Origin: an uncultured Bacteroidota bacterium | Lineage (GTDB): Bacteria; CLD3; SB21 | Direction of reading: 5' to 3' | Length of the DNA: 64,000 bases | NCBI GenBank assembly: GCA_964415295.1 | Contig: CAYPYN010000005.1 | Coordinates: 251,321-315,320, forward strand | Shown: positions 2,706-53,050 of the stretch, in pieces | Numbering within the stretch: the stretch's first letter is position 1 | Layout of the letters: each line of letters opens with the position of its first letter | Notes under the pieces: generated by a model | What the model was told of the DNA's origin: nothing | Seen by the model: only the letters and a program-made list of their open reading frames with translations | Database searches by the model: none | Translations under genes and position numbers: made by a program

Positions 2706-5700
2706 CTACTTCACAAACAGCATCTTCTTTACCTTCGAGATCTTTCCCGCTTCAAGCCTGTAAATGTAAACACCGCTGGCAACTTCTCGGCCTAAGACGT
2801 CTTTCCCATTCCACACCGCCTGATAGTTGCGTCCGGTTTCGTAGTATCCGTTGACCAGCGTCGTTACTTCCTGTCCCAGAATATTGTAGATCTTTATCCT
2901 TACGCTGCTTGACCGCGCCACATCGAACTTGATCGTTGTGGATGGGTTGAACGGGTTCGGATAGTTCTGCGACAGCGAGAATTCTTTCGGCAGAGACGCT
3001 TCGATCTCTTGAACGTGATCGTTCACCCAATTGGCTTCGCCTGCGATAATTTTGAACCGCGCCGGTCGCGCATTATCGAAGGCATATCCGAGGCTCTTTT
3101 CCAATTCCGTTTTCTTGTTATGCGTAATGTCGAAAAGTATGACCTTCTGTATTCCGGCCTCATACTCCCAGGAGAGTCTCGTCTGTTTTTGGCTCGTGTT
3201 GTTTTCAACCACCAGATCCCAGACATGACCTGGTTCACTGGCCGAACGGATATCATACGAAAGATCTCTCACAGCTTCCGAAGAAGTATTGACGAAGTAC
3301 GCATGGACGCCTCCGGCCATGACCAACGGTTCGAGTTCATCCAAGTCATCGTAGTCATTCGCCGCTGCTTCTTTTGTTCCGACATAGTTATAGCTGTCCC
3401 GGTATTCTCCGGATTCCGCCATGAACCGGATGGACGATGTCAGATCATCGGTAATTGATTTACCCGCCGCCCGTGTCCAGGTCACAGCGGAGCCCACGGT
3501 AATATCGCCGGCCGTTTTGTTTCGGATCATGTAGCCGCCATACGGTTTTAGTTGCGAAACCGTTTCCCATCCGCTATTGCCGTTCATCCACCAAATCTGT
3601 CCGATCTTCGCGGCGTCTTTGGCGGTTACATTGGCGGTAAATGTGTAAGGCCATGCGATCAGATTCCACCCGGGCTTGAGAATTGTATTATTGAACGCAT
3701 CCGACGCTATCGCTGTCGGAGATGAAACGCTGCTGAAGAGATCCTCCGGGGTTCCCGTTTTGTGGTAAAGGCCGTACGCATTGCCGCTGGTCATGGAGGA
3801 GACGTCTGAAAAGCTCTGTGTGGACGAATTAAAAGACTGCAGGCGCCAATTGGACGGGTTCCCGTCGCCGGCAAATTCCTGCGCGCCGAAGTAATCGGTC
3901 AGATTCAAAGTGCCGTTGAAGGATAAACCGATAGTAAAATATCCTCCGCTGCCGACGCCGTTGGGGTACGCGCTGATCGTTTTGATCGGAGAGAAATTGG
4001 TGATCTGCACCGCGATCGTCTGTACGCCGGAAGCCGGATAGTAAACAACGCCCGCCGTATTATGCGCGCGTATGCGGAACCAAAGGCCTTCCTGAGTAAC
4101 GCCGGTGCCGGATATCGTAGCCGTGTAAGCGCTTCCGTTGAAAGTCATGAGCGTGGAATCGCCCGGGGACTGACCCGGTTTGCCGTGAAACAGTTTAACC
4201 GTCGGCGCTGAGCCGGTTACCGGAACTGAAATAGTCACGCTTGTTCCCGGAGCCGGATTGGCGTTGGATACCTGAAGGGAACCCGCCGTGATCGAAGGCG
4301 CAATAACTGTGACGGTCAAATTGAATGGCCGGGAATACAGCGTCAGCGCCGTTGCAACCGTGTTAGTGATGCGGCAAATATATTGTCCGTCGTCGGACGC
4401 CTGCGCGGAAGCGATGGAGTAAGAGGAATTTGTTGCCCCGCCGATCAATGTTCCGTCTTTATACCATTGATATTGATTGTTAGCGCCGCCAACCGTGACG
4501 GTGAACGCTAACGCAGCATTCAAATTTACGGTCGTGTCTTTTTGAATGCCTACACTGTCCTGCGGAGAATAGACAAAGGACTGTGATGGCGCGCCGATAT
4601 TGGGTTCGATGTCTTCGAAGGTAAATTGGTTATTATCGATCTCAAGGTTTTCCAGCGAGGTTGCGGTTGAAAAATCCGGCAGATCGGTCAGATCGTTTGA
4701 CGACAAATAGAGTTTTTTCAATTCGCTCAATCCGGTAAGGGAGTTCGGTACCGCTCCCGACAGTTTATTATTAAGCAGATACAGCTCCTGTAAATTAGAC
4801 AAATTTCCAAGCTGAGATGGAATCGTTCCTGTCAATTGATTGGTATGAAGAATCAACTCCAGGATATTGCTCAGGTTGCCGATCTCTGAGGGAATAGAAC
4901 CGCTCAATTGGTTATTGAGCAAATACAGATGCGTCAGATTGGTAAGGTTTCCGATCGAAGAAGGGATCGAGCCCGAAAGGGACGTGTTGTATAAAAAGAG
5001 AATGGTCAGATTCGTGAGATTGCCGATCTGAGGCGGAATTGTGCCTGTGAGCTGGTTACTGTACAGGTGAAGCGCGGTCAAATTGGTCAAATTCCCTATT
5101 TCCGGCGGGATGTTCCCCGATATAAAACACTCGCTGAGATATAGCTGTGTCAGGCCGGTCAGGCTGCAGATCTGTTTCGGGAAAGCCCCGTTGAATTGGT
5201 TCTTGGGCAGATTGAGATAGATCAGGCCGGTCAGGGTTGCGATGCTTTGTGGAATGGTCCCGATGAGATTATTGTCAGGTAAGTTGATCTGCGAGACCCG
5301 GTTATTTGACACGCTTACGCCGAACCATGTCTCCAGCGGATTCCCTGTTTTCCAATTCGTTTTGTTGGTCCAATTTGCTCCGCCCGTGCTGTCGAAGAAT
5401 TCGACCAAAGCCAGCGAGTCGTTCAGCCGCGAAGACAGATACACATTCGCCGCGGCGGGTGAGCTTTCATTTAATCCGTTATCCAGGGCTGTCACGCGAA
5501 AATAGTACATTCCGTCCAGCAACAATGGGCCGAGCAGCGAGGTCGTGTCCGATGCCGTCGTGTTGCTGTCAATCTGGTTGAAGACGATCCCGTCGGTTCC
5601 GGAATAGATGCGATAACGCAAGAAATCCGCATCGGTATTTTGCCGCCATTTCAGCAAAACGCGGTAATTAACGAGCGGTGTAAATGTGAAGTTGGACGGA

Positions 5701-8700
5701 ACGCCCGGCGGAAAATCCTGGAACCGGTATGCGCCGATATCGTTGCGCGAACCGTCCGGGTCATTGTACTGAACGGCAGGATCGCCGGCATTGATGCAGG
5801 GCGAATTGGACGCCAGCTGGAAATTTCCTCCGGCGGCATTGACCTGCAGCGGATCAAGCGCGAGATCGCCTGCGCCCGGCGAAGTAAATGTACCGGTGTA
5901 ATTAAAACTGTTATTGAAATAATCGTTATACGATCCGATGCCCGACGCGGCGCTGTTGTTAAGTCCGAATCCGTTGCCGCGGATGATATTATTCTTTACG
6001 ACGCTTGATGCTCCGCTGGAAAGATACACGCCGTGGGTGTTATTGTAGATCGTGTTATTGATGACGGAGACATTCGCTTCCACCCGCATACCGTATCCCG
6101 GACTGTTCTTGACGTTTTTGACGACGGTGTGTGAGATATTTGCAGGCCCGAGCAGATGCAAACCGGTTCCCGCCACGTTCGTTTTTCCGTCGAAAACAAA
6201 CCCGTCCAGCTTAACGCCGAACGCGTCATACCACATCGTTGAACTCACCGCTTCGATCACGGTCTGATTGACGGCGGGTATCCGGGATGATTCCAAAAAA
6301 TCTCCGCCGTATCCGCCGCGCACCACGGCGTAGCCGGTTGTAATGATCCCTTCGGCGTAATTTCCCGCCGCCACTTTGATCGTGTCGCCCAATGCGCTTT
6401 GCAGTGCTTTGGTGATCGTGCGGTACGGGCTGGCGATCGACCCGTCGTTGTTATCGTTGCCGGATGTAGAAACGAACGTCACGGGATTCACGCCCGTCTT
6501 CGACGCCTCGGAAGTGCCGCCTAAATTTCCGATATTGATCTTACCGCCGTTGGGCGCGGGCTCGTCGCCAACCGGATCCGCCGGATTGCCCGCATCGATG
6601 CATGGTGAGCCGCCTTTGAGGCGGAAGTCGCCGCCCGCAGGATAAACAAATTTGGGATCGGCATTGATGTCATTGGCGCCGGGAGAATTGAACGTGCCGT
6701 CGTAGTTGAGGAAATCGTTGTTGTAAACACAATTATAATTGGCGATCGATGCCGAAAGATTATTATCCAGTCCGACGTCGTTGAGCATGATGATATTATT
6801 TTCGATCCTCGTTGTTCCTGCATTCGCCGACGCATGGACCACGATCGAGTAGAAGATCACGCCGCCACCGGCAAGCTGATTATTATAGATCGTGTTGTTT
6901 TTGATCACGGCGCCCGCGCCGGAATTGACGACGATACCCTGATTGCCGCTCCCGAAGTAATTAACGATTGTACAATGCGTGATGGTCGTGGTTCCGCCCG
7001 TGACATTGACCGCTTTGGCAGTGCCCAAAGATCCGTCAAAAACGATCCCGTCAAAAGTACAACTCTGGTTGTCCGTCACTTGCGGACTTGTAACCGCTTT
7101 CCACACGGTTTGGTATGAATGAATATTCCTCTGCGATTCGCTGAATCCCGGCGCATATCCTCCGCGAATTATGAGCGGCTTGTTCATCGTAAGGTTTTCC
7201 GTCCACGTACCTGCGCCGATCTTGATCGTATCCCCTGCGGCGGCCTTATTCATCGCATCGCCGACAGCGGCCAGAGGGAATTGCGCGCTTCCGTCGTTGG
7301 AATTGCTGCCGGTGGAGGAGACGTGAAGGGATTGGAACATGGGAGTGGTGCTCACTTCATTTGAATAGGCGCTTTGATTATATAATGAATCAATGGCGGC
7401 TATTCTGAAATAATAGGTAACTCCGTTCGTCAAACCCGTAATGATCTTTGTAGTGTCTGTGATCCCTCCTGCTGTGCTGTCCACTTGCACGCCCGCATTG
7501 GGTGAAGTGCTTTGATAGATGCGATATCTGAGGAAATCCGATTCGTTGTTTTTTTGCCATTTCAAAGTGATTTGTCCGTTTTCCGCAACGGCAATAAGGT
7601 TTTGGGGCGCTTCAGGCGGTGTAGGAACAGGGGGAGGAATTACGTTTCGAAATACAGAAATTTGACTTCCTTGTGAGTTGTCTGAAACAATATCCGGTTT
7701 TTTATCTCCATCAATATCTCCAATAATCACATCCCATGGATTAGATCCACCTACTGCGTAAATTTGTGCACTATTAAAGTTGACGTTTCCGATTGAACTA
7801 ACATTTTTAAAAACATAAACATTTGAACTCCCCTCATTAGCATTGGCAATATCTACCTTTCCATCTCCATCGAGGTCACCTATACTAAGCTCAATTGGAT
7901 TACTGCCAGTACTCATATTGCTACTTGGAGCAAAGGATAAATTTCCTGGGCTACTGGTATTTCGAAAAACAGAAACATTGGAAGATGCATTTATTACAAT
8001 TATGTCCAGTTTTCCATCTCGATCAATATCGCCTAAAGCAACCCCTTGTGGGGGGAAACTGTAGATATTAAATTTAGTAGAGAATGTGTTGGCCGTAATG
8101 GTTGCGTTTGACTGGGATAACCAGATCGATACCGAATCGTTGTTGACATTTGCTGCCACGATATCAGATATGCTGTCGCCATCCATATCACCGATTTGTA
8201 CGAATTGTGGCCGTGTACCTTTCAAATTGACTCTACTTGAAAAAGACAATGAACCCTTTGTACTTAGGTTTTGAAAAACAAATATTGAATCAGTTGGCCA
8301 ATCACTCCCAACAACTATTTCTGGTTTTCCATCACCATTTAAGTCGCCGATAGCAACCCCAAAAGGTTTCAATCCGGTTGTCAGATCATTTTTTGAAGTA
8401 AAGGAAATTGTGCCCGAAGAACTAATGTTGCGAAAAAGTGAAATAGTGTTTCCGGAACCGGCTCCGTAGTTTGATACAACCACGTCAAACTTCCCATCTC
8501 CATCCAAATCTCCAGTTCCAATGTTTTGCGGATCGTTATTAGAAATCAGATTTTGAAATGAGGCAAAACTTATATTGCCAGGCGAGCTCGTGTTTTGCCC
8601 TATTTTGACTGTTGTTTGGCCTTCTGAATTTCCTTGAAGAATGTCAAGTTTTCCATCACCGTCTAAATCTGCTAACTTAACGGAATTTGGCAAAACAGCA

Positions 8701-12426: not shown

Positions 12427-13806
12427 TCAACTCTTCGCTTCGTTTTCCGACATCTTATCGGAAGTAATATTATAATACTTCAGTTTCTTGTGCAGATTGG
12501 TGCGCTCGATATCGAGCTCCTGCGCCGCCCGGGTCACGTTCCAGTTATTCTTCTCCATCACCGATACGATGTGCGCGCGTTCCACTTCCTCTTTGATATC
12601 CTTCAGCGATTTATTTCCCGACGTGTTCTTGATATAAGCCGCTTCCGACCGCGTCACGTTAAAGGGCAGTTCCGACGCCTGCACCACATCGCCCGCCCCG
12701 AGGATCATCATACGCTCCACCACATTACGCAGTTCCCGTATATTTCCGGGCCATTCGTATTCGCTCATCGAGCGGATCGCCTCTTCGGAAAATGATTTTT
12801 TCTTCAGCGCGCTCTCTTCACAGCATTGTTTGATGAAATGCTGTATCAATAACGGAATGTCGTTTTTCCTCTGCCGCAGAGGCGGCATCATGATCGGTAC
12901 CACGTTGAGACGGAAGTAGAGATCCTCGCGGAAAGTCCCTTTCTGGACTTCCGATTTCAGGTCCTTGTTCGTTGCGGCCACGACACGCACATCCACTTTG
13001 ATCGTTTTCGTTCCGCCGACCTTTTCAAATTCACCTTCCTGCAGAGCGCGCAGAACTTTGGCCTGAACTTTCAGACTCATATCGCCGATCTCATCGAGGA
13101 AGATCGTTCCGGTATGCGCCTGGGTAAATTTCCCGTCGCGATCCGCCACGGAGCCCGTATACGCGCCTTTCACCGCACCGAAAAGTTCGCTTTCGATGAG
13201 TTCCTCCGGTATCGCGGCGCAATTAACCTTAATAAATGGTTTGTTCTTCCGCGGACTCATCTCATGCACCGCCCGGGCGACAAGTTCCTTACCGGTTCCG
13301 CTCTCGCCGAGGACGAGCACGCGCACGTTGGTCGAAGCGATCTTCTGGATCTGCGCTTTGACGTCGCGCATAGCGGAACTTTCGCCGACCATTTCAAACT
13401 GCTTGGCCAAAGTCGATTTGAGCGAACGGTTCTCTTCCCTCAGACTTACGCGTTCCAACGCATTCTTGGCGGTGATCAGAACTTTTTCTTTGGTCAGCGG
13501 TTTCTCGATGAAATCGTACGCGCCCAGCTTCACCGCTTCGACGGCATTCTCGATCGTGCCGTGGCCGGACATCATGACCACAACCACATCGGGATCGATC
13601 TCTTTGGCTTGTTTCAATGTCTCGATGCCGTTCATCTCCGGCATCAGCAGATCGAGAAGGATCAGATCCATTTTCTTCTCACGAAGGTTCTGAATCGCTT
13701 CTTTTCCGTTCTCCGCCTGGAAGATCGTATGGTCTTCGCTTTGCAGGATCATTTCCACCGATCGGCGGATGTTCTTTTCATCGTCAACGATAAGAATTTG
13801 GCTCAC
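12427..13806 (-). CDS. Sigma54-dependent response regulator (NtrC/NtrX/ZraR family: REC, AAA+, Fis HTH)
   Basis: ILIVDD..LLDLLMPEMNG (REC), GESGTGKELVA, ESELFG..KGAYTGS (GAFTGA variant), TIFLDEIGDM, WPGNIREL, HTH. GTG start at 13806 after GGAGG preferred over the ORF-track start at 13860. Confidence 0.93.
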   Translation of the reverse strand: MSQILIVDDEKNIRRSVEMILQSEDHTIFQAENGKEAIQNLREKKMDLILLDLLMPEMNGIETLKQAKEIDPDVVVVMMSGHGTIENAVEAVKLGAYDFIEKPLTKEKVLITAKNALERVSLREENRSLKSTLAKQFEMVGESSAMRDVKAQIQKIASTNVRVLVLGESGTGKELVARAVHEMSPRKNKPFIKVNCAAIPEELIESELFGAVKGAYTGSVADRDGKFTQAHTGTIFLDEIGDMSLKVQAKVLRALQEGEFEKVGGTKTIKVDVRVVAATNKDLKSEVQKGTFREDLYFRLNVVPIMMPPLRQRKNDIPLLIQHFIKQCCEESALKKKSFSEEAIRSMSEYEWPGNIRELRNVVERMMILGAGDVVQASELPFNVTRSEAAYIKNTSGNKSLKDIKEEVERAHIVSVMEKNNWNVTRAAQELDIERTNLHKKLKYYNITSDKMSENEAKS

Positions 13807-48355: not shown

Positions 48356-48895
48356 ATGGATTCACAGCTGATTTTAAGCTTTTGTTTGCTGTTTACATTA
48401 TCTTGCTCTCCGCCGAAGCAATTTATCGAACTCAGAAGCGATAATGGGAAAATCCGGACAGTTCAACCGAACTTCATTTCTTCGTATACTCTTGAAGTAG
48501 ACAGTCAAAGGATCGATTCGGGACAATTTTTGAATTTAGGTGAAGCATGGAAGATTGTCGCAACCAACCCGGAGGATCAAAGCATCGAATTCGTATCGGC
48601 GGTAAAGGAAAACCACAGAATGGTATTGCGCAAAGACCAGATTCGATACCTGAAAGTGCATGTTACAAATTCTGTAAAATTCTCGGATCAAATCGTTTCG
48701 ACAGCCGTGTTCACAGGTTTTGTGGTAGGCTCACTGGGAATATTCTTTGGCACAATCGCTTTGCCGATACCATCCACTCCATGGAAAGAAGATGTCGATC
48801 TTGTTTTGCGCGGAGCGGGCATTCTGGGTATAACCTTCCTGGTTAGTTATCTGGCCGAGGATAATAATCATTATGAAATAACTGAAATTCACTGA
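48356..48895 (+). CDS. Uncharacterized lipoprotein with C-terminal hydrophobic helices (paralog A)
   Basis: Lipobox FTLSC; similar along its length to 52460-53050. Confidence 0.75.
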   Translation: MDSQLILSFCLLFTLSCSPPKQFIELRSDNGKIRTVQPNFISSYTLEVDSQRIDSGQFLNLGEAWKIVATNPEDQSIEFVSAVKENHRMVLRKDQIRYLKVHVTNSVKFSDQIVSTAVFTGFVVGSLGIFFGTIALPIPSTPWKEDVDLVLRGAGILGITFLVSYLAEDNNHYEITEIH

Positions 48896-51070: not shown

Positions 51071-52171
51071 ATGGAATTTATGCAACTTCTGTCGATTTTA
51101 GACCGTTATCTCATAAAAAAGTTCTTGGGTGTCCTGTTTTTCGCTCTGATCGCGATGATCACCATTTTCGTTGCGGTCAACTATGTCGAAAACGCGGACA
51201 AGTTCATTGATCGAAAAGTCCCGGGCGATATCATTTTTCAATATTATCTTAACTTTATTCCCAATATTGTAACCCTCACCTTGCCTGTGGATATTTTGTT
51301 GGCAAGTCTTTTTTCTTTGGGAAGCCTAGCCCGGTTCAATGAACTTACTGCTATCAAAGCCTCCGGTGTGAGCCTTTATCGTGTTATTTTTCCTTTGATT
51401 ATAATCGCTGTCTTGGTGAGTCTGTCCAATTTCTGGTTAAGTGAAAATGTAGTGCCAAAGGCCAATGCTACAAAGTCTGAAATATGGAAAACCTATGTAG
51501 ACCGTGCTTTGGCCAGTCGCAGAATAGCCGGCAACAATATCAGCATGTACGATCCGGGTGGAACCAAGGTCTTTATTGAAAGGTTCGACAAAAAGTTGAT
51601 TTTATGCACTAATATATCGATACAGAAATTCTATGGATTCAAACTTGTTGAGAGAATCGACGCATCGGAGGCGTTATGGGATTCGGCCAAATCCACTTGG
51701 ATTCTGAAAAAGGGCACACGAAGAGTGTTTGAACGTGGAAATGAGAGAATTCAGAAGTTCGCTCAGATGGAGAAAGATGATCTGTTCTTTCATCCGGATG
51801 ATATTCTGAAAAGGGAACAAAATCCGGATGAGATGAATTTTATGGAATTGAACGAGTTTATTACCAAACTTCGTTTGTCGGGAGCACGCACAGAGCGTTG
51901 GGAGGTAGATTATCATCTGAAATTCTCCTATCCGCTCACTTGTTTCTTTATGGTGGTCTTCGGAGCACCTCTGGCCGCATCGCGCAAAAAGAGCGGAGCA
52001 GGGTTGAATATCTTCCTGACCCTGGTTATCTGCTTTGGTTATTATTCGATGATTCAGCTTGGCCGATTTATGGGATACAATCAGACCCTGGGACCGATAG
52101 AGGCGGCTTGGATCGGAAATGCCATATTTGGGTTGATCAGCATCCTGATATTTATAAGACTCAAGAGCTAA
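51071..52171 (+). CDS. lptG: LPS export ABC permease, LptF/LptG family (LptG-like)
   Basis: ILDRYL...F, LP...LLA.L..LG.L....ELTA.KASGVSL.R, H.K.SYPL.C..MV..G.PL, P..AAW..N. Confidence 0.8.
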   Translation: MEFMQLLSILDRYLIKKFLGVLFFALIAMITIFVAVNYVENADKFIDRKVPGDIIFQYYLNFIPNIVTLTLPVDILLASLFSLGSLARFNELTAIKASGVSLYRVIFPLIIIAVLVSLSNFWLSENVVPKANATKSEIWKTYVDRALASRRIAGNNISMYDPGGTKVFIERFDKKLILCTNISIQKFYGFKLVERIDASEALWDSAKSTWILKKGTRRVFERGNERIQKFAQMEKDDLFFHPDDILKREQNPDEMNFMELNEFITKLRLSGARTERWEVDYHLKFSYPLTCFFMVVFGAPLAASRKKSGAGLNIFLTLVICFGYYSMIQLGRFMGYNQTLGPIEAAWIGNAIFGLISILIFIRLKS

Positions 52172-52197
52172 TTCTTTCTTGGGGGTAATTCCCCAAT

Positions 52198-52234
52198 AAT
52201 AAAAAAGCGCCGCAGAAACCCAAACTGCGGCGCT
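52198..52234 (-). terminator. Intrinsic terminator polarised for a minus-strand transcript
   Basis: AGCGCCGCAG-aaacccaaa-CTGCGGCGCT 10-bp stem (52206-52234). The A-run on its left gives a U-tail only on the minus strand. Confidence 0.75.
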
Positions 52235-52405
52235 CTCAAAGTAGTCAAAGACCCTATCTTTAACTATTTTTGACCCTAAACCCTCAAAACAGGAGAAAAT
52301 TTCAAAAAACTGAAGTCTTCTTATCAGAAAACTGTATAATTCGTGTTCGATGCAGAACTTAAGTTATTAATTTGCAACAAAGCTATTCTCATTGCTTAAG
52401 TTCCT
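52198..52405 (-). ncRNA. Candidate small RNA (about 200 nt)
   Basis: Sigma54-like promoter TGGCAT-N5-TTGT (52431-52417), 5' hairpin GAACTTAAG/CTTAAGTTC, three AGGGU repeats and a minus-strand terminator; no substantial minus-strand ORF. Confidence 0.45.
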
Positions 52406-52459
52406 CACATTATATAACAAGTCTTATGCCATTTCCTGTGTGACAGCATCAATTAATTA

Positions 52460-53050
52460 ATGCATTCGTATATAATAAAGATAGTTTTGTTGATGGTTAC
52501 TGTGGCCTCGTGTTCCGCGCCCAAAAATTTCATTCAGGTATCGACGGATAGCGGCAGAAAAAGAATCATCTTTCCACCCGGCAAAACATGTTTCCTGGTT
52601 GAACTTGACAGTATCAGATCCGATCCTTTTCAAATCCAACTTTTCAGAATAGAGACGGACTGTACAGGAACGATTGCCAGTGGCTCTTCTTGGCTTGTGA
52701 CGTCGATTGACACATCCGAAAAGAAGATCAACTTCAAGAATTGTGGAAGTGATTCCCTGGAAGCTTCCTTAAAAACAGAGTCGATCCGGTATCTTATTCC
52801 ATACGGACGGGACCTTTCTGCCGCTGACGCTTTAGATATCGTGGCACTACCCGCCTTCATATTAGGAACCGTCGGAATGAGCTGGGGTCTGATATCGCTT
52901 CCTTTTCCTTCCACTCCCTCGCAAGACGATGTCAAACTTCTAAGCGGAGGTGTGGCGGCTCTGGGCGTTTTTGGAGTAGCTGTCTGGTTAAAGAATTCAT
53001 TGCGGGCTGACACGACAGAAAATCGATATAAGATCGTAAGTTTGCATTAA
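52460..53050 (+). CDS. Uncharacterized lipoprotein with C-terminal hydrophobic helices (paralog B)
   Basis: Lipobox TVASC; shares SCS.PK.FI....D.G..R, IRYL, LP.PSTP...DV.L and terminal Y.I...H with 48356-48895. Confidence 0.75.
   Translation: MHSYIIKIVLLMVTVASCSAPKNFIQVSTDSGRKRIIFPPGKTCFLVELDSIRSDPFQIQLFRIETDCTGTIASGSSWLVTSIDTSEKKINFKNCGSDSLEASLKTESIRYLIPYGRDLSAADALDIVALPAFILGTVGMSWGLISLPFPSTPSQDDVKLLSGGVAALGVFGVAVWLKNSLRADTTENRYKIVSLH

Follow-up and report, generated by a model that had tools for sequence, protein, structure and literature searches.

A probable order-restricted small RNA gene with a sigma-54-type promoter in an uncultured Bacteroidota lineage

Small RNAs that depend on sigma-54 are known from Proteobacteria and Myxococcota. 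Here we analyse a predicted small RNA gene in a 64,000-nt stretch of contig CAYPYN010000005.1 (hereafter the window), from an uncultured lineage related to the Fibrobacteres-Chlorobi-Bacteroidetes (FCB) assemblage that NCBI places in 'Bacteroidota'. The gene is present in a single copy, is predicted to yield an RNA of ~205 nt, and lies on the minus strand (~52405 to ~52198) in a 288-nt gap (52172-52459) between lptG and a 196-codon open reading frame (ORF) without a Pfam match; promoter, RNA and terminator all fall within 52431-52198. An earlier inspection of the letters alone (hereafter the sequence-only reading) had proposed that this strand encodes an undescribed small RNA, complete with terminator and sigma-54-type promoter. 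The proposal was borne out, an Rfam search finding no family, and when the sequence was read again the coordinates of all proposed features were correct. We consider it highly probable that the small RNA gene is real, has not been described before, is restricted to one order and has a sigma-54-type promoter. From its features we infer a regulatory RNA that acts in trans, and we predict its start site, a role of two internal repeats (R1 and R2) as activator sites or enhancer, and its mode of action.

Among the described systems, Qrr1-5 of Vibrio (sigma-54 with LuxO) share with this locus a -24/-12 promoter and an intrinsic terminator, and also, to the extent that these are inferred here, activator dependence and trans action. 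The Qrr RNAs are ~100 nt long and depend on Hfq, and the LuxO sites lie on the upstream side of their promoters, whereas the RNA described here is ~205 nt long, belongs to a genome without Hfq, has candidate activator sites inside the transcribed region and has no Rfam match. GlmY and GlmZ of Enterobacteria (sigma-54 with GlrR) are likewise sigma-54-driven, and GlmY serves as a decoy for RapZ; sequestration of a protein is also what we propose here. In some species GlmY/GlmZ have an overlapping sigma-70 promoter, whereas the overlapping TATAAT at this locus is found in only 3 of 22 homologs. They further differ in having GlrR and IHF sites upstream of the promoter, in their motif and in their phylum, and no Rfam match links the two. 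CrcZ and CrcY of Pseudomonas (sigma-54 with CbrB, sponges for Hfq/Crc) are sigma-54-dependent non-coding RNAs, CrcZ with repeated short motifs, and the sigma-54-dependent Pxr of Myxococcus has several stem-loops as well. The CrcZ motifs, in contrast, are A-rich and act on Hfq, which is absent here, and there is no homology to CrcZ/CrcY or Pxr.

The sequence-only reading had pointed to CsrB/RsmY-type RNAs as an analogy. With CsrB, RsmY and RsmZ the RNA does share a short G-rich motif that is repeated in loops and linkers and varies in copy number between relatives. Those RNAs, however, carry A(N)GGA arrays and are transcribed from GacA-dependent sigma-70 promoters, whereas here 2-5 copies of UAGGGU stand behind a sigma-54-type promoter; with no CsrA gene in the genome and no GGA array in the RNA, the analogy does not extend to membership. 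In Bacteroides, a host without Hfq, ProQ and CsrA, the single-RRM (RNA recognition motif) protein RbpB binds small RNAs such as FopS and GibS in single-stranded regions, but these are other RNAs, with sigma-ABfr promoters and no reported UAGGGU motif (PMC11697453). None of the Rfam 15 covariance models matched at gathering score anywhere in the window, and membership in Csr/Rsm, Qrr, GlmY or another Rfam family is excluded by test. A permissive scan gave AaHKsRNA96 (28.5 vs 43 bits) and GcvB (25 vs 42 bits) as the best sub-threshold matches; these, and a similar match to ncS54, were driven by the terminator and were rejected. A comparable RNA was not found in the literature.

Promoter, terminator and strand of the gene

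The promoter element TGGCATAAGACTTGT (TGGCAT-AAGAC-TTGT; 52431-52417, minus strand) has the geometry of a sigma-54 -24/-12 site, with GG (52430/52429) at -25/-24, TTG from -15, and exactly 10 bases between GG and the G at -13 (52418), which is followed by T at -12 (52417). The element is found at the same distance in all 22 distinct homologs, which come from 16 genomes and extra contigs, a duplicate of G015 being counted once. In each of them G-25, G-24, A-22, T-15, T-14 and G-13 are invariant, and the distance from YGGYAY-N5-TTG to where the terminator U-run ends is 163-214 nt. The first 13 homologs were extracted together with 100 nt of upstream sequence and have the element at a constant distance in 13/13. 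The remaining nine (G009, G011, G013 and six extra contigs) were found with covariance model R1, which comprises the 3' core only, so that the promoter was an independent prediction for them; it was in the expected place in 9/9. A match to YGGYAY-N5-TTG is expected by chance in a 30-nt window about once in 1000 sequences. With the usual sigma-54 spacing the start site is predicted at 52405 (minus strand), which gives RNA lengths of 163-214 nt across the homologs.

Canonical sigma-54 promoters have GC at -13/-12. The sequence-only reading had noted the fitting -24/-12 spacing together with a mismatch at the -12 C, and both points stand: the base is T here, and among the homologs T is found 11 times, A six times, C four times and G once. 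The absence of the canonical C here, and its presence in only 4/22 homologs, weighs against a sigma-54 promoter; it is a deviation from the consensus and does not exclude the element from the sigma-54 class. Other intergenic candidate sites in the genome, several of them before signal-peptide genes, mostly read TTGT or TTGA, and from these it appears that the lineage may have a relaxed preference at -12. The genome encodes rpoN (PF04552, 197 bits) and 12 enhancer-binding activators with full PF00158 AAA+ domains.

The terminator is formed by an 11-bp stem (GCGCCGCAG/CUGCGGCGC) that encloses the loop UUUGGGUUU and is followed by U6 (52198..52236, minus strand); across the homologs the tail is U6-10. 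The U-run of GCGCCGCAG-UUUGGGUUU-CUGCGGCGC exists on the minus strand only, and since the plus strand continues with CUCUCAAAG instead of a U-run, the hairpin is a terminator of the minus strand. This is the strand on which the sequence-only reading had seen the U-tail of the GC-rich hairpin, and the stem covaries: 100% of its cells are paired, with compensatory changes in 7/11 pairs. A simple terminator scan missed the hairpin because its 9-nt loop exceeds the limit of 8 in that scan.

Covariation was assessed in an alignment of the 22 sequences fitted to covariance model R1, a minus-strand model by which that strand is somewhat favoured; in it 94.0% of cells are in standard pairs (shuffles 83.0 ± 0.9%, slid controls 37-50%), with compensatory changes in 18/27 pairs, and G·U cells outnumber A·C cells by 65 to 13, with 94% pairing when read as minus-strand RNA and 85% as plus-strand RNA. 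The excess of G·U over A·C assigns the RNA to the minus strand, and the U-run and the promoter agree with this assignment. The covariance analysis of homologous intergenic regions that had been suggested thus found covariation in the terminator stem and in a second stem-loop (SL3), as well as conserved motifs.

A gene without a sigma-54 promoter has to be weighed against these data. The housekeeping sigma factor would then use TATAAT, or the locus would belong to lptG on the plus strand, as its 3' untranslated region (UTR) or a terminator element; the overlap of TATAAT with the promoter region, the missing -12 C and the position of the hairpin directly 3' of lptG speak for such an account. The TATAAT, which the sequence-only reading had offered as a sigma-70 alternative, is indeed present (52414-52409, minus strand), but it occurs in only 3/22 homologs, and a sigma-70 consensus scan of the minus strand of the region found no promoter and no -35 element. 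Against it stand also the invariance of GG-N10-TTG in 22/22 homologs, the pairing and G·U evidence for the minus strand, the U-run on that strand only, and the occurrence of the element away from lptG. We regard this account as extremely improbable and retain the sigma-54-type promoter.

The 213-nt stretch has a minimum free energy (MFE) fold of -62.6 kcal/mol (z = -3.9), and 0/200 shuffles fold as well. At the 5' end, GGAACUUAAG (52404-52395) pairs with CUUAAGUUCU (52363-52354), forming the stem-loop GGAACUUAAGCAAUGAGA...CUUAAGUUCU (52354..52404, minus strand). The folded 5' end expected from the sequence-only reading is therefore present in the MFE fold, but it is specific to this genome: the 5' hairpins of the homologs are unrelated and variable in sequence, and only the 3' partner is kept, an ACUUAAG box (52358..52364, minus strand) that follows an A/T-rich tract. 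Further downstream, the hairpin CUCC-UGUUUU-GAGG (52282..52295, minus strand) has 96.6% of its cells paired and changes on both sides in 3/3 pairs. SL3, with UAGUUAAAGA and UCUUUGACUA flanking a UAGGG loop (52242..52266, minus strand), shows compensatory changes in 8/8 modelled pairs and is absent in G009. The sole ORF in the RNA, a 22-codon frame in the variable 5' part, is not conserved, which marks the RNA as non-coding.

Other sigma-54-related features were noted elsewhere in the genome (G000). One of the 12 activator genes is in the window at ~12892-13392 on the minus strand (C5:264212-264712; AAA+ 250.8 bits), ~39 kb from the small RNA, and another lies just outside it (C5:242269-242766). 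A sigma-54-like site, TGGTATGACCTTTGC (C9:85561-85575, plus strand), precedes by ~83 nt a gene whose product starts with MAKGKVIGIDLGTTNSC (dnaK), as a motif match only; further sigma-54-like intergenic sites (C2:563284, C2:137199, C9:2754, C1:585763) precede signal-peptide or lipoprotein-like products. These motif matches hint that sigma-54 may serve envelope functions in this organism, and perhaps heat shock.

Distribution, genomic context and transcription

By BLASTN, identity over the 3' ~140 nt (52336-52198) is 92% within the genus and 70-77% with other genera, and the 5' part has no detectable similarity in relatives. Covariance model R1 found exactly one copy in 16/18 genomes of the order and none in 233 genomes outside it; in GTDB the entire phylum is represented by only 20 species genomes. 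G004 and G005, the two members of the order in which no copy was found, also have no lptG ortholog in their assemblies, and for this reason we attribute the absence to an assembly gap and not to loss. Two class-level relatives have lptG, and the small RNA element was not found in them. A weak match in the class-level relative G019 came from a terminator of similar appearance downstream of a coding gene; it has no promoter and was rejected as a homolog.

When LptG was used as the query, the matches fell into two sharply separated sets: 31 clusters of at least 60% identity, and all others at no more than 42%, among them Gemmatimonadota, Caldithrix and Ignavibacteria. Of 10 extra contigs fetched in this way, seven have the RNA right after lptG on the opposite strand, one of these seven being the duplicate of G015. 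The most divergent lptG lineage (ENA contig L094, LptG 60% identical) has a different hairpin-terminated sequence after lptG on the minus strand (L094:2586-2751). This gap gives a weak covariance match of 27.5 bits and has no canonical sigma-54 element, the GC of TGGCAATTTTGAGC being one base too close; the sequence could be either a homolog that has diverged or an element with no relation to the family. The runs that hold the window are bioreactor, sludge and wastewater metagenomes. In a pattern scan of metagenomes both matches were eukaryotic telomere repeats (TTTAGGG)n, and a match in a Nodosilinea contig was due to chance; all were rejected.

In the window, the RNase R gene (rnr) lies upstream of lptG (51071..52171, plus strand; PF03739, E = 1.4e-82), which is convergent with the small RNA gene and outside the RNA. 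The same convergent arrangement with rnr-lptG is seen in 13/16 genomes and in 7/10 extra contigs, and it is the main point in favour of a cis action, in which convergent sigma-54 transcription or antisense overlap with the lptG 3' UTR would tune lptG. As no U-run follows the hairpin when it is read on the plus strand, lptG transcripts may moreover enter the small RNA gene. In three genomes (G007, G009 and G016), however, the small RNA is located away from lptG with all its features retained, and in two extra contigs it is not beside lptG either; wherever the RNA was found, promoter, motifs and terminator are kept. The strong terminator (11 bp, 100% conserved pairing) halts the RNA ~27 nt short of the lptG stop codon, and cis action would give the conserved exposed motifs no role. 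The retention of all features by relocated copies favours a trans-acting product and disfavours a purely cis role at lptG, and we consider the latter very improbable.

On the promoter side, the 196-codon ORF (52460-53050, plus strand) begins 28 nt upstream of the small RNA promoter. It is a distant paralog (27.5% identity, E = 6e-19) of an ORF that precedes rnr (48356-48895, plus strand), and it occupies this position in this genome only; the promoter-side neighbour is thus not conserved. In family f2 (L024, L027, L028, L102:1717-2148), an Rrf2-family regulator (PF02082) is the product of the gene that diverges from the promoter, an association that is conserved in this family only.

Two metatranscriptomes (freshwater sediment and wastewater) and one run of doubtful RNA or DNA type yielded contigs, 163-193 nt long, with matches to the conserved part of the gene as it occurs in relatives. 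They lend weak support to transcription of the locus somewhere, because the runs were chosen for containing these sequence words and the contigs are strandless. Several points weigh against a stronger reading: the contigs are short and come from relatives, the one from the doubtful run extends ~20 nt upstream of the predicted start, and no strand-resolved reads, 5'-end data or mapped transcript ends turned up in the RNA-type runs searched. For the two true metatranscriptome contigs (X25 and X26), the likeness thresholds applied are such that flanking sequence of the source relatives would go unmapped. Four runs of undeclared type gave flat, DNA-like coverage, and a further query, made with a different homolog, returned no RNA run.

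Repeats R1 and R2 and their spacing

Two palindromic repeats with the consensus TTCAG-N4-YTGAA lie within the transcribed region. Repeat R1 (TACAGTTTTCTGATAA; 52321..52336, minus strand) has a CAG-N4-CTG core, and its sequence is kept in all homologs; repeat R2 (TTCAGTTTTTTGAAAT; 52299..52314, minus strand) follows 22 nt after it. Across the homologs the spacing between the repeats is 20-23 nt, mostly 21-22 nt, which corresponds to two turns of DNA. Measured from the first T of TGGCAY, repeat R1 starts at 94-99 nt in 16 homologs, at 85-87 nt in five (G010, G013, L103, L097 and L098) and at 75 nt in one (G008), and none of the 22 falls between these classes. In a rough tree of the 3' core the short forms appear in three places (the g7 clade, L098 with G008, and L097), and G008 is one step shorter than L098, so that up to four independent steps of 10-11 nt are indicated. 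The palindrome centres are ~94 and 115 bp from the centre of the promoter, or ~9 and 11 turns of 10.5 bp, and relative to the predicted start the palindromes are ~70 and 91 nt downstream. The two phased palindromes and the variable 5' half of the transcript go beyond the features that the sequence-only reading had listed.

Sigma-54 requires an ATP-dependent activator. We propose that such an activator would bind the palindromes R1 and R2 (52336-52299) as a downstream enhancer, and that the poorly conserved 5' ~95 nt, with the A/T-rich tract and the ACUUAAG box, would serve mainly as a phased spacer or bend. In most homologs a TTAAG-like box begins 69-71 nt after the first T of TGGCAY (50 nt in G008), and this near-fixed distance from the promoter leads us to speculate that the box and the tract, midway between promoter and repeats, are a bend site. 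Downstream enhancers are known for FlbD (ftr sites, Caulobacter) and FlrC (Vibrio cholerae), activators of flagellar sigma-54 promoters whose sites lie downstream of the start, as the candidate sites R1 and R2 do; those enhancers serve protein-coding flagellar genes, whereas R1 and R2 lie in a small RNA gene. Conserved upstream enhancers were not found, the flanks upstream of the promoter being unrelated between genera and often coding.

Alternatively, R1 and R2 could be features of the RNA, as short hairpins or as single-stranded UYUGAA, and there bind a protein or guide how the 5' half is processed. In that case the steps of 10-11 nt would be coincidental, and the activator would act from elsewhere or without a DNA site; some activators, such as FlgR of Helicobacter, need no enhancer. 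RNAalifold predicts a hairpin at R2. On the RNA strand the motif is rich in T, and conservation is stronger in its 3' half (YTGAA) than in the 5' half, an asymmetry that suits an RNA feature. The R2 hairpin, however, shows compensatory change in 0/5 pairs, departures merely breaking pairs in the 22 sequences. The lack of covariation, the spacing quantised by one DNA turn in several lineages and the location of the repeat centres ~9 and 11 turns from the promoter centre favour DNA sites that depend on the face of the helix over RNA features. An RNA role remains a real prospect, though somewhat short of an even one.

Three observations weigh against the enhancer. The steps of 10-11 nt are based on 3-4 events and on a tree from 140 nt; no activator gene adjoins the small RNA locus; and the pair R1+R2 is unique in the genome (position-weight-matrix score 45.5 vs 25.8 for the next best), so that no regulon backs an activator site, which also speaks for an RNA feature. 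Taken with the phasing, the chances that R1 and R2 act on DNA appear to us evenly balanced. An internal enhancer, if true, would explain how regulation is kept after relocation of the gene.

G-rich motifs and possible modes of action

AGGGU occurs on the minus strand at 52284-52280, 52277-52273 and 52255-52251, the third copy in the loop of AAAGA-UAGGG-UCUUU, and GGGU recurs in the loop of the terminator, all as the sequence-only reading had placed them. The first copy belongs to GAGGGUU, the 3' arm of the CUCC/GAGG hairpin. The second is part of a single-stranded UAGGGU (52273..52278, minus strand) that links this hairpin to SL3 and stays unpaired in the folds. The number of GGG sites per homolog is 2-5, and most of them read UAGGGU or GAGGGU. 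The linker UAGGG is present in 19/22 homologs and the (U)AGGG of the SL3 loop in only 7/22; in the terminator loop, 20/22 carry a run of GGG, mostly as GGGU(U), and the other two carry AGGUUU. Among 400 terminator-like hairpins of the genome, only that of the small RNA has GGGU in its loop. The UAGGGU-type motif is thus a conserved, specific property of the RNA, and this part of the sequence-only reading is upheld, the GGG(U) motifs being more than chance.

In the mechanism that we propose, sigma-54 RNA polymerase would transcribe the gene from the -24/-12 element at 52431-52417 and the transcript would end at its own Rho-independent terminator. The working RNA would be the conserved 3' ~100 nt, with the CUCC/GAGG hairpin, the single-stranded UAGGGU, SL3 and the terminator with its GGGU(U) loop. 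We favour a mode in which 2-4 exposed UAGGGU-type sites would sequester a single-strand RNA-binding protein. In the 100%-complete genome no match was found to CsrA (PF02599, E <= 0.1) or to Hfq (PF17209), and tblastn found neither. The genome encodes two single-RRM proteins of ~100 aa, which would be the obvious candidates for the partner of a decoy; their genes are at G000 C8:~730-1030 and C4:~328310-328620.

Instead of binding a protein, the RNA from the same gene and promoter could act by base-pairing, the mode of most bacterial small RNAs and the multi-seed alternative named by the sequence-only reading. GAGGGUUUAGGGU and the GGGUU of the terminator loop would then be seeds for ACCC(U)A sites in mRNAs, which would mirror RsaE/RoxS and RNAIII, multi-seed RNAs whose seeds are C-rich. 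Consistent with pairing, family f1 has an invariant single-stranded stretch of 10-17 nt, AACCC and ACCCTA show a mild excess 10-50 nt ahead of predicted start codons, a candidate site, GACCCUAAAACCC, is located between the genes of an ECF sigma factor and its anti-sigma factor, and an 11-nt perfect complement is present in a multi-copy element of genus g1. The long seed is lost in family f2, however, where only GAGGGUU and the loop motif remain, Hfq is not encoded, and a terminator loop conserved in sequence would be unusual for a seed. When the G-rich stretch was compared by RNAduplex with the 3,109 predicted translation-start regions of this one genome, the best duplex reached -22.7 kcal/mol and five shuffled seeds -19.7 to -24.2 kcal/mol; the single-genome target prediction was no better than shuffled seeds and was rejected. 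We hold pairing to be possible but rather doubtful.

The site between the ECF sigma gene and the gene of a 314-aa putative anti-sigma factor contains GACCCTAAAACCCTT (G000 C2:134657-134671, plus strand), 42 nt before the start of the latter. It is complementary to GAGGGUUUAGGGUC of the small RNA with one bulge, a single candidate that is not significant alone.

The multi-copy element is ~200-250 nt long and strongly self-complementary; it opens with the hairpin CACTTTCTTTTTAAAAAAGAAAGTG, contains nested inverted repeats and has no Rfam match. It carries CCTAAACCCTC, the 11-nt perfect complement of GAGGGUUUAGG in the small RNA. In G000, copies are found at C2:333559-333764, 335446-335647 and 337966-338167 (L053:2059-2264, 3946-4147 and 6466-6667), and further ones include C1:540874-541076, C1:566619-566820, C1:567197-567398, C8:124927-125126, C8:134065-134266 and C9:129404-129603. 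BLAST gave 9-16 full or partial matches per genome in genus g1, including G004, and at most two partial ones, mostly none, in other genera. The element could be a mobile element resembling miniature inverted-repeat transposable elements, or a structured RNA family. As it is nearly confined to one genus and the small RNA is order-wide, it was rejected as a conserved target, which also counts against pairing.

Returning to the decoy, we lean towards it over pairing because the motif is short, is placed in loops and linkers, varies in copy number and has a copy in the terminator loop. Some observations weigh against it: two to four copies are few for a sponge, no clear matching motif was found in the 5' UTRs of the two RRM genes, and the link between RRM proteins and UAGGGU is purely hypothetical. 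A protein decoy as the mode of action is accordingly put forward tentatively, at a little below even chances.

In its complete form, the proposal is of a self-contained module in which sigma-54, an internal phased enhancer and a 3' UAGGGU decoy together would titrate a global RNA-binding protein of the RRM type. That all of these parts hold together is unlikely on present evidence; if true, the module would be a Csr-like titration circuit built with a different protein and a different motif in a lineage without CsrA and Hfq. Likewise, if the palindromes are an enhancer, the architecture would be unusual, the activator sites being transcribed into the very RNA that they control. The RNA would be the first sigma-54 small RNA described in this uncultured lineage. 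The covariance model can annotate the family in metagenomes, and the conserved UAGGGU sites offer a bait for the partner protein or for target mRNAs. The gene thereby provides a testable entry to post-transcriptional control in bacteria that have neither Hfq nor CsrA.

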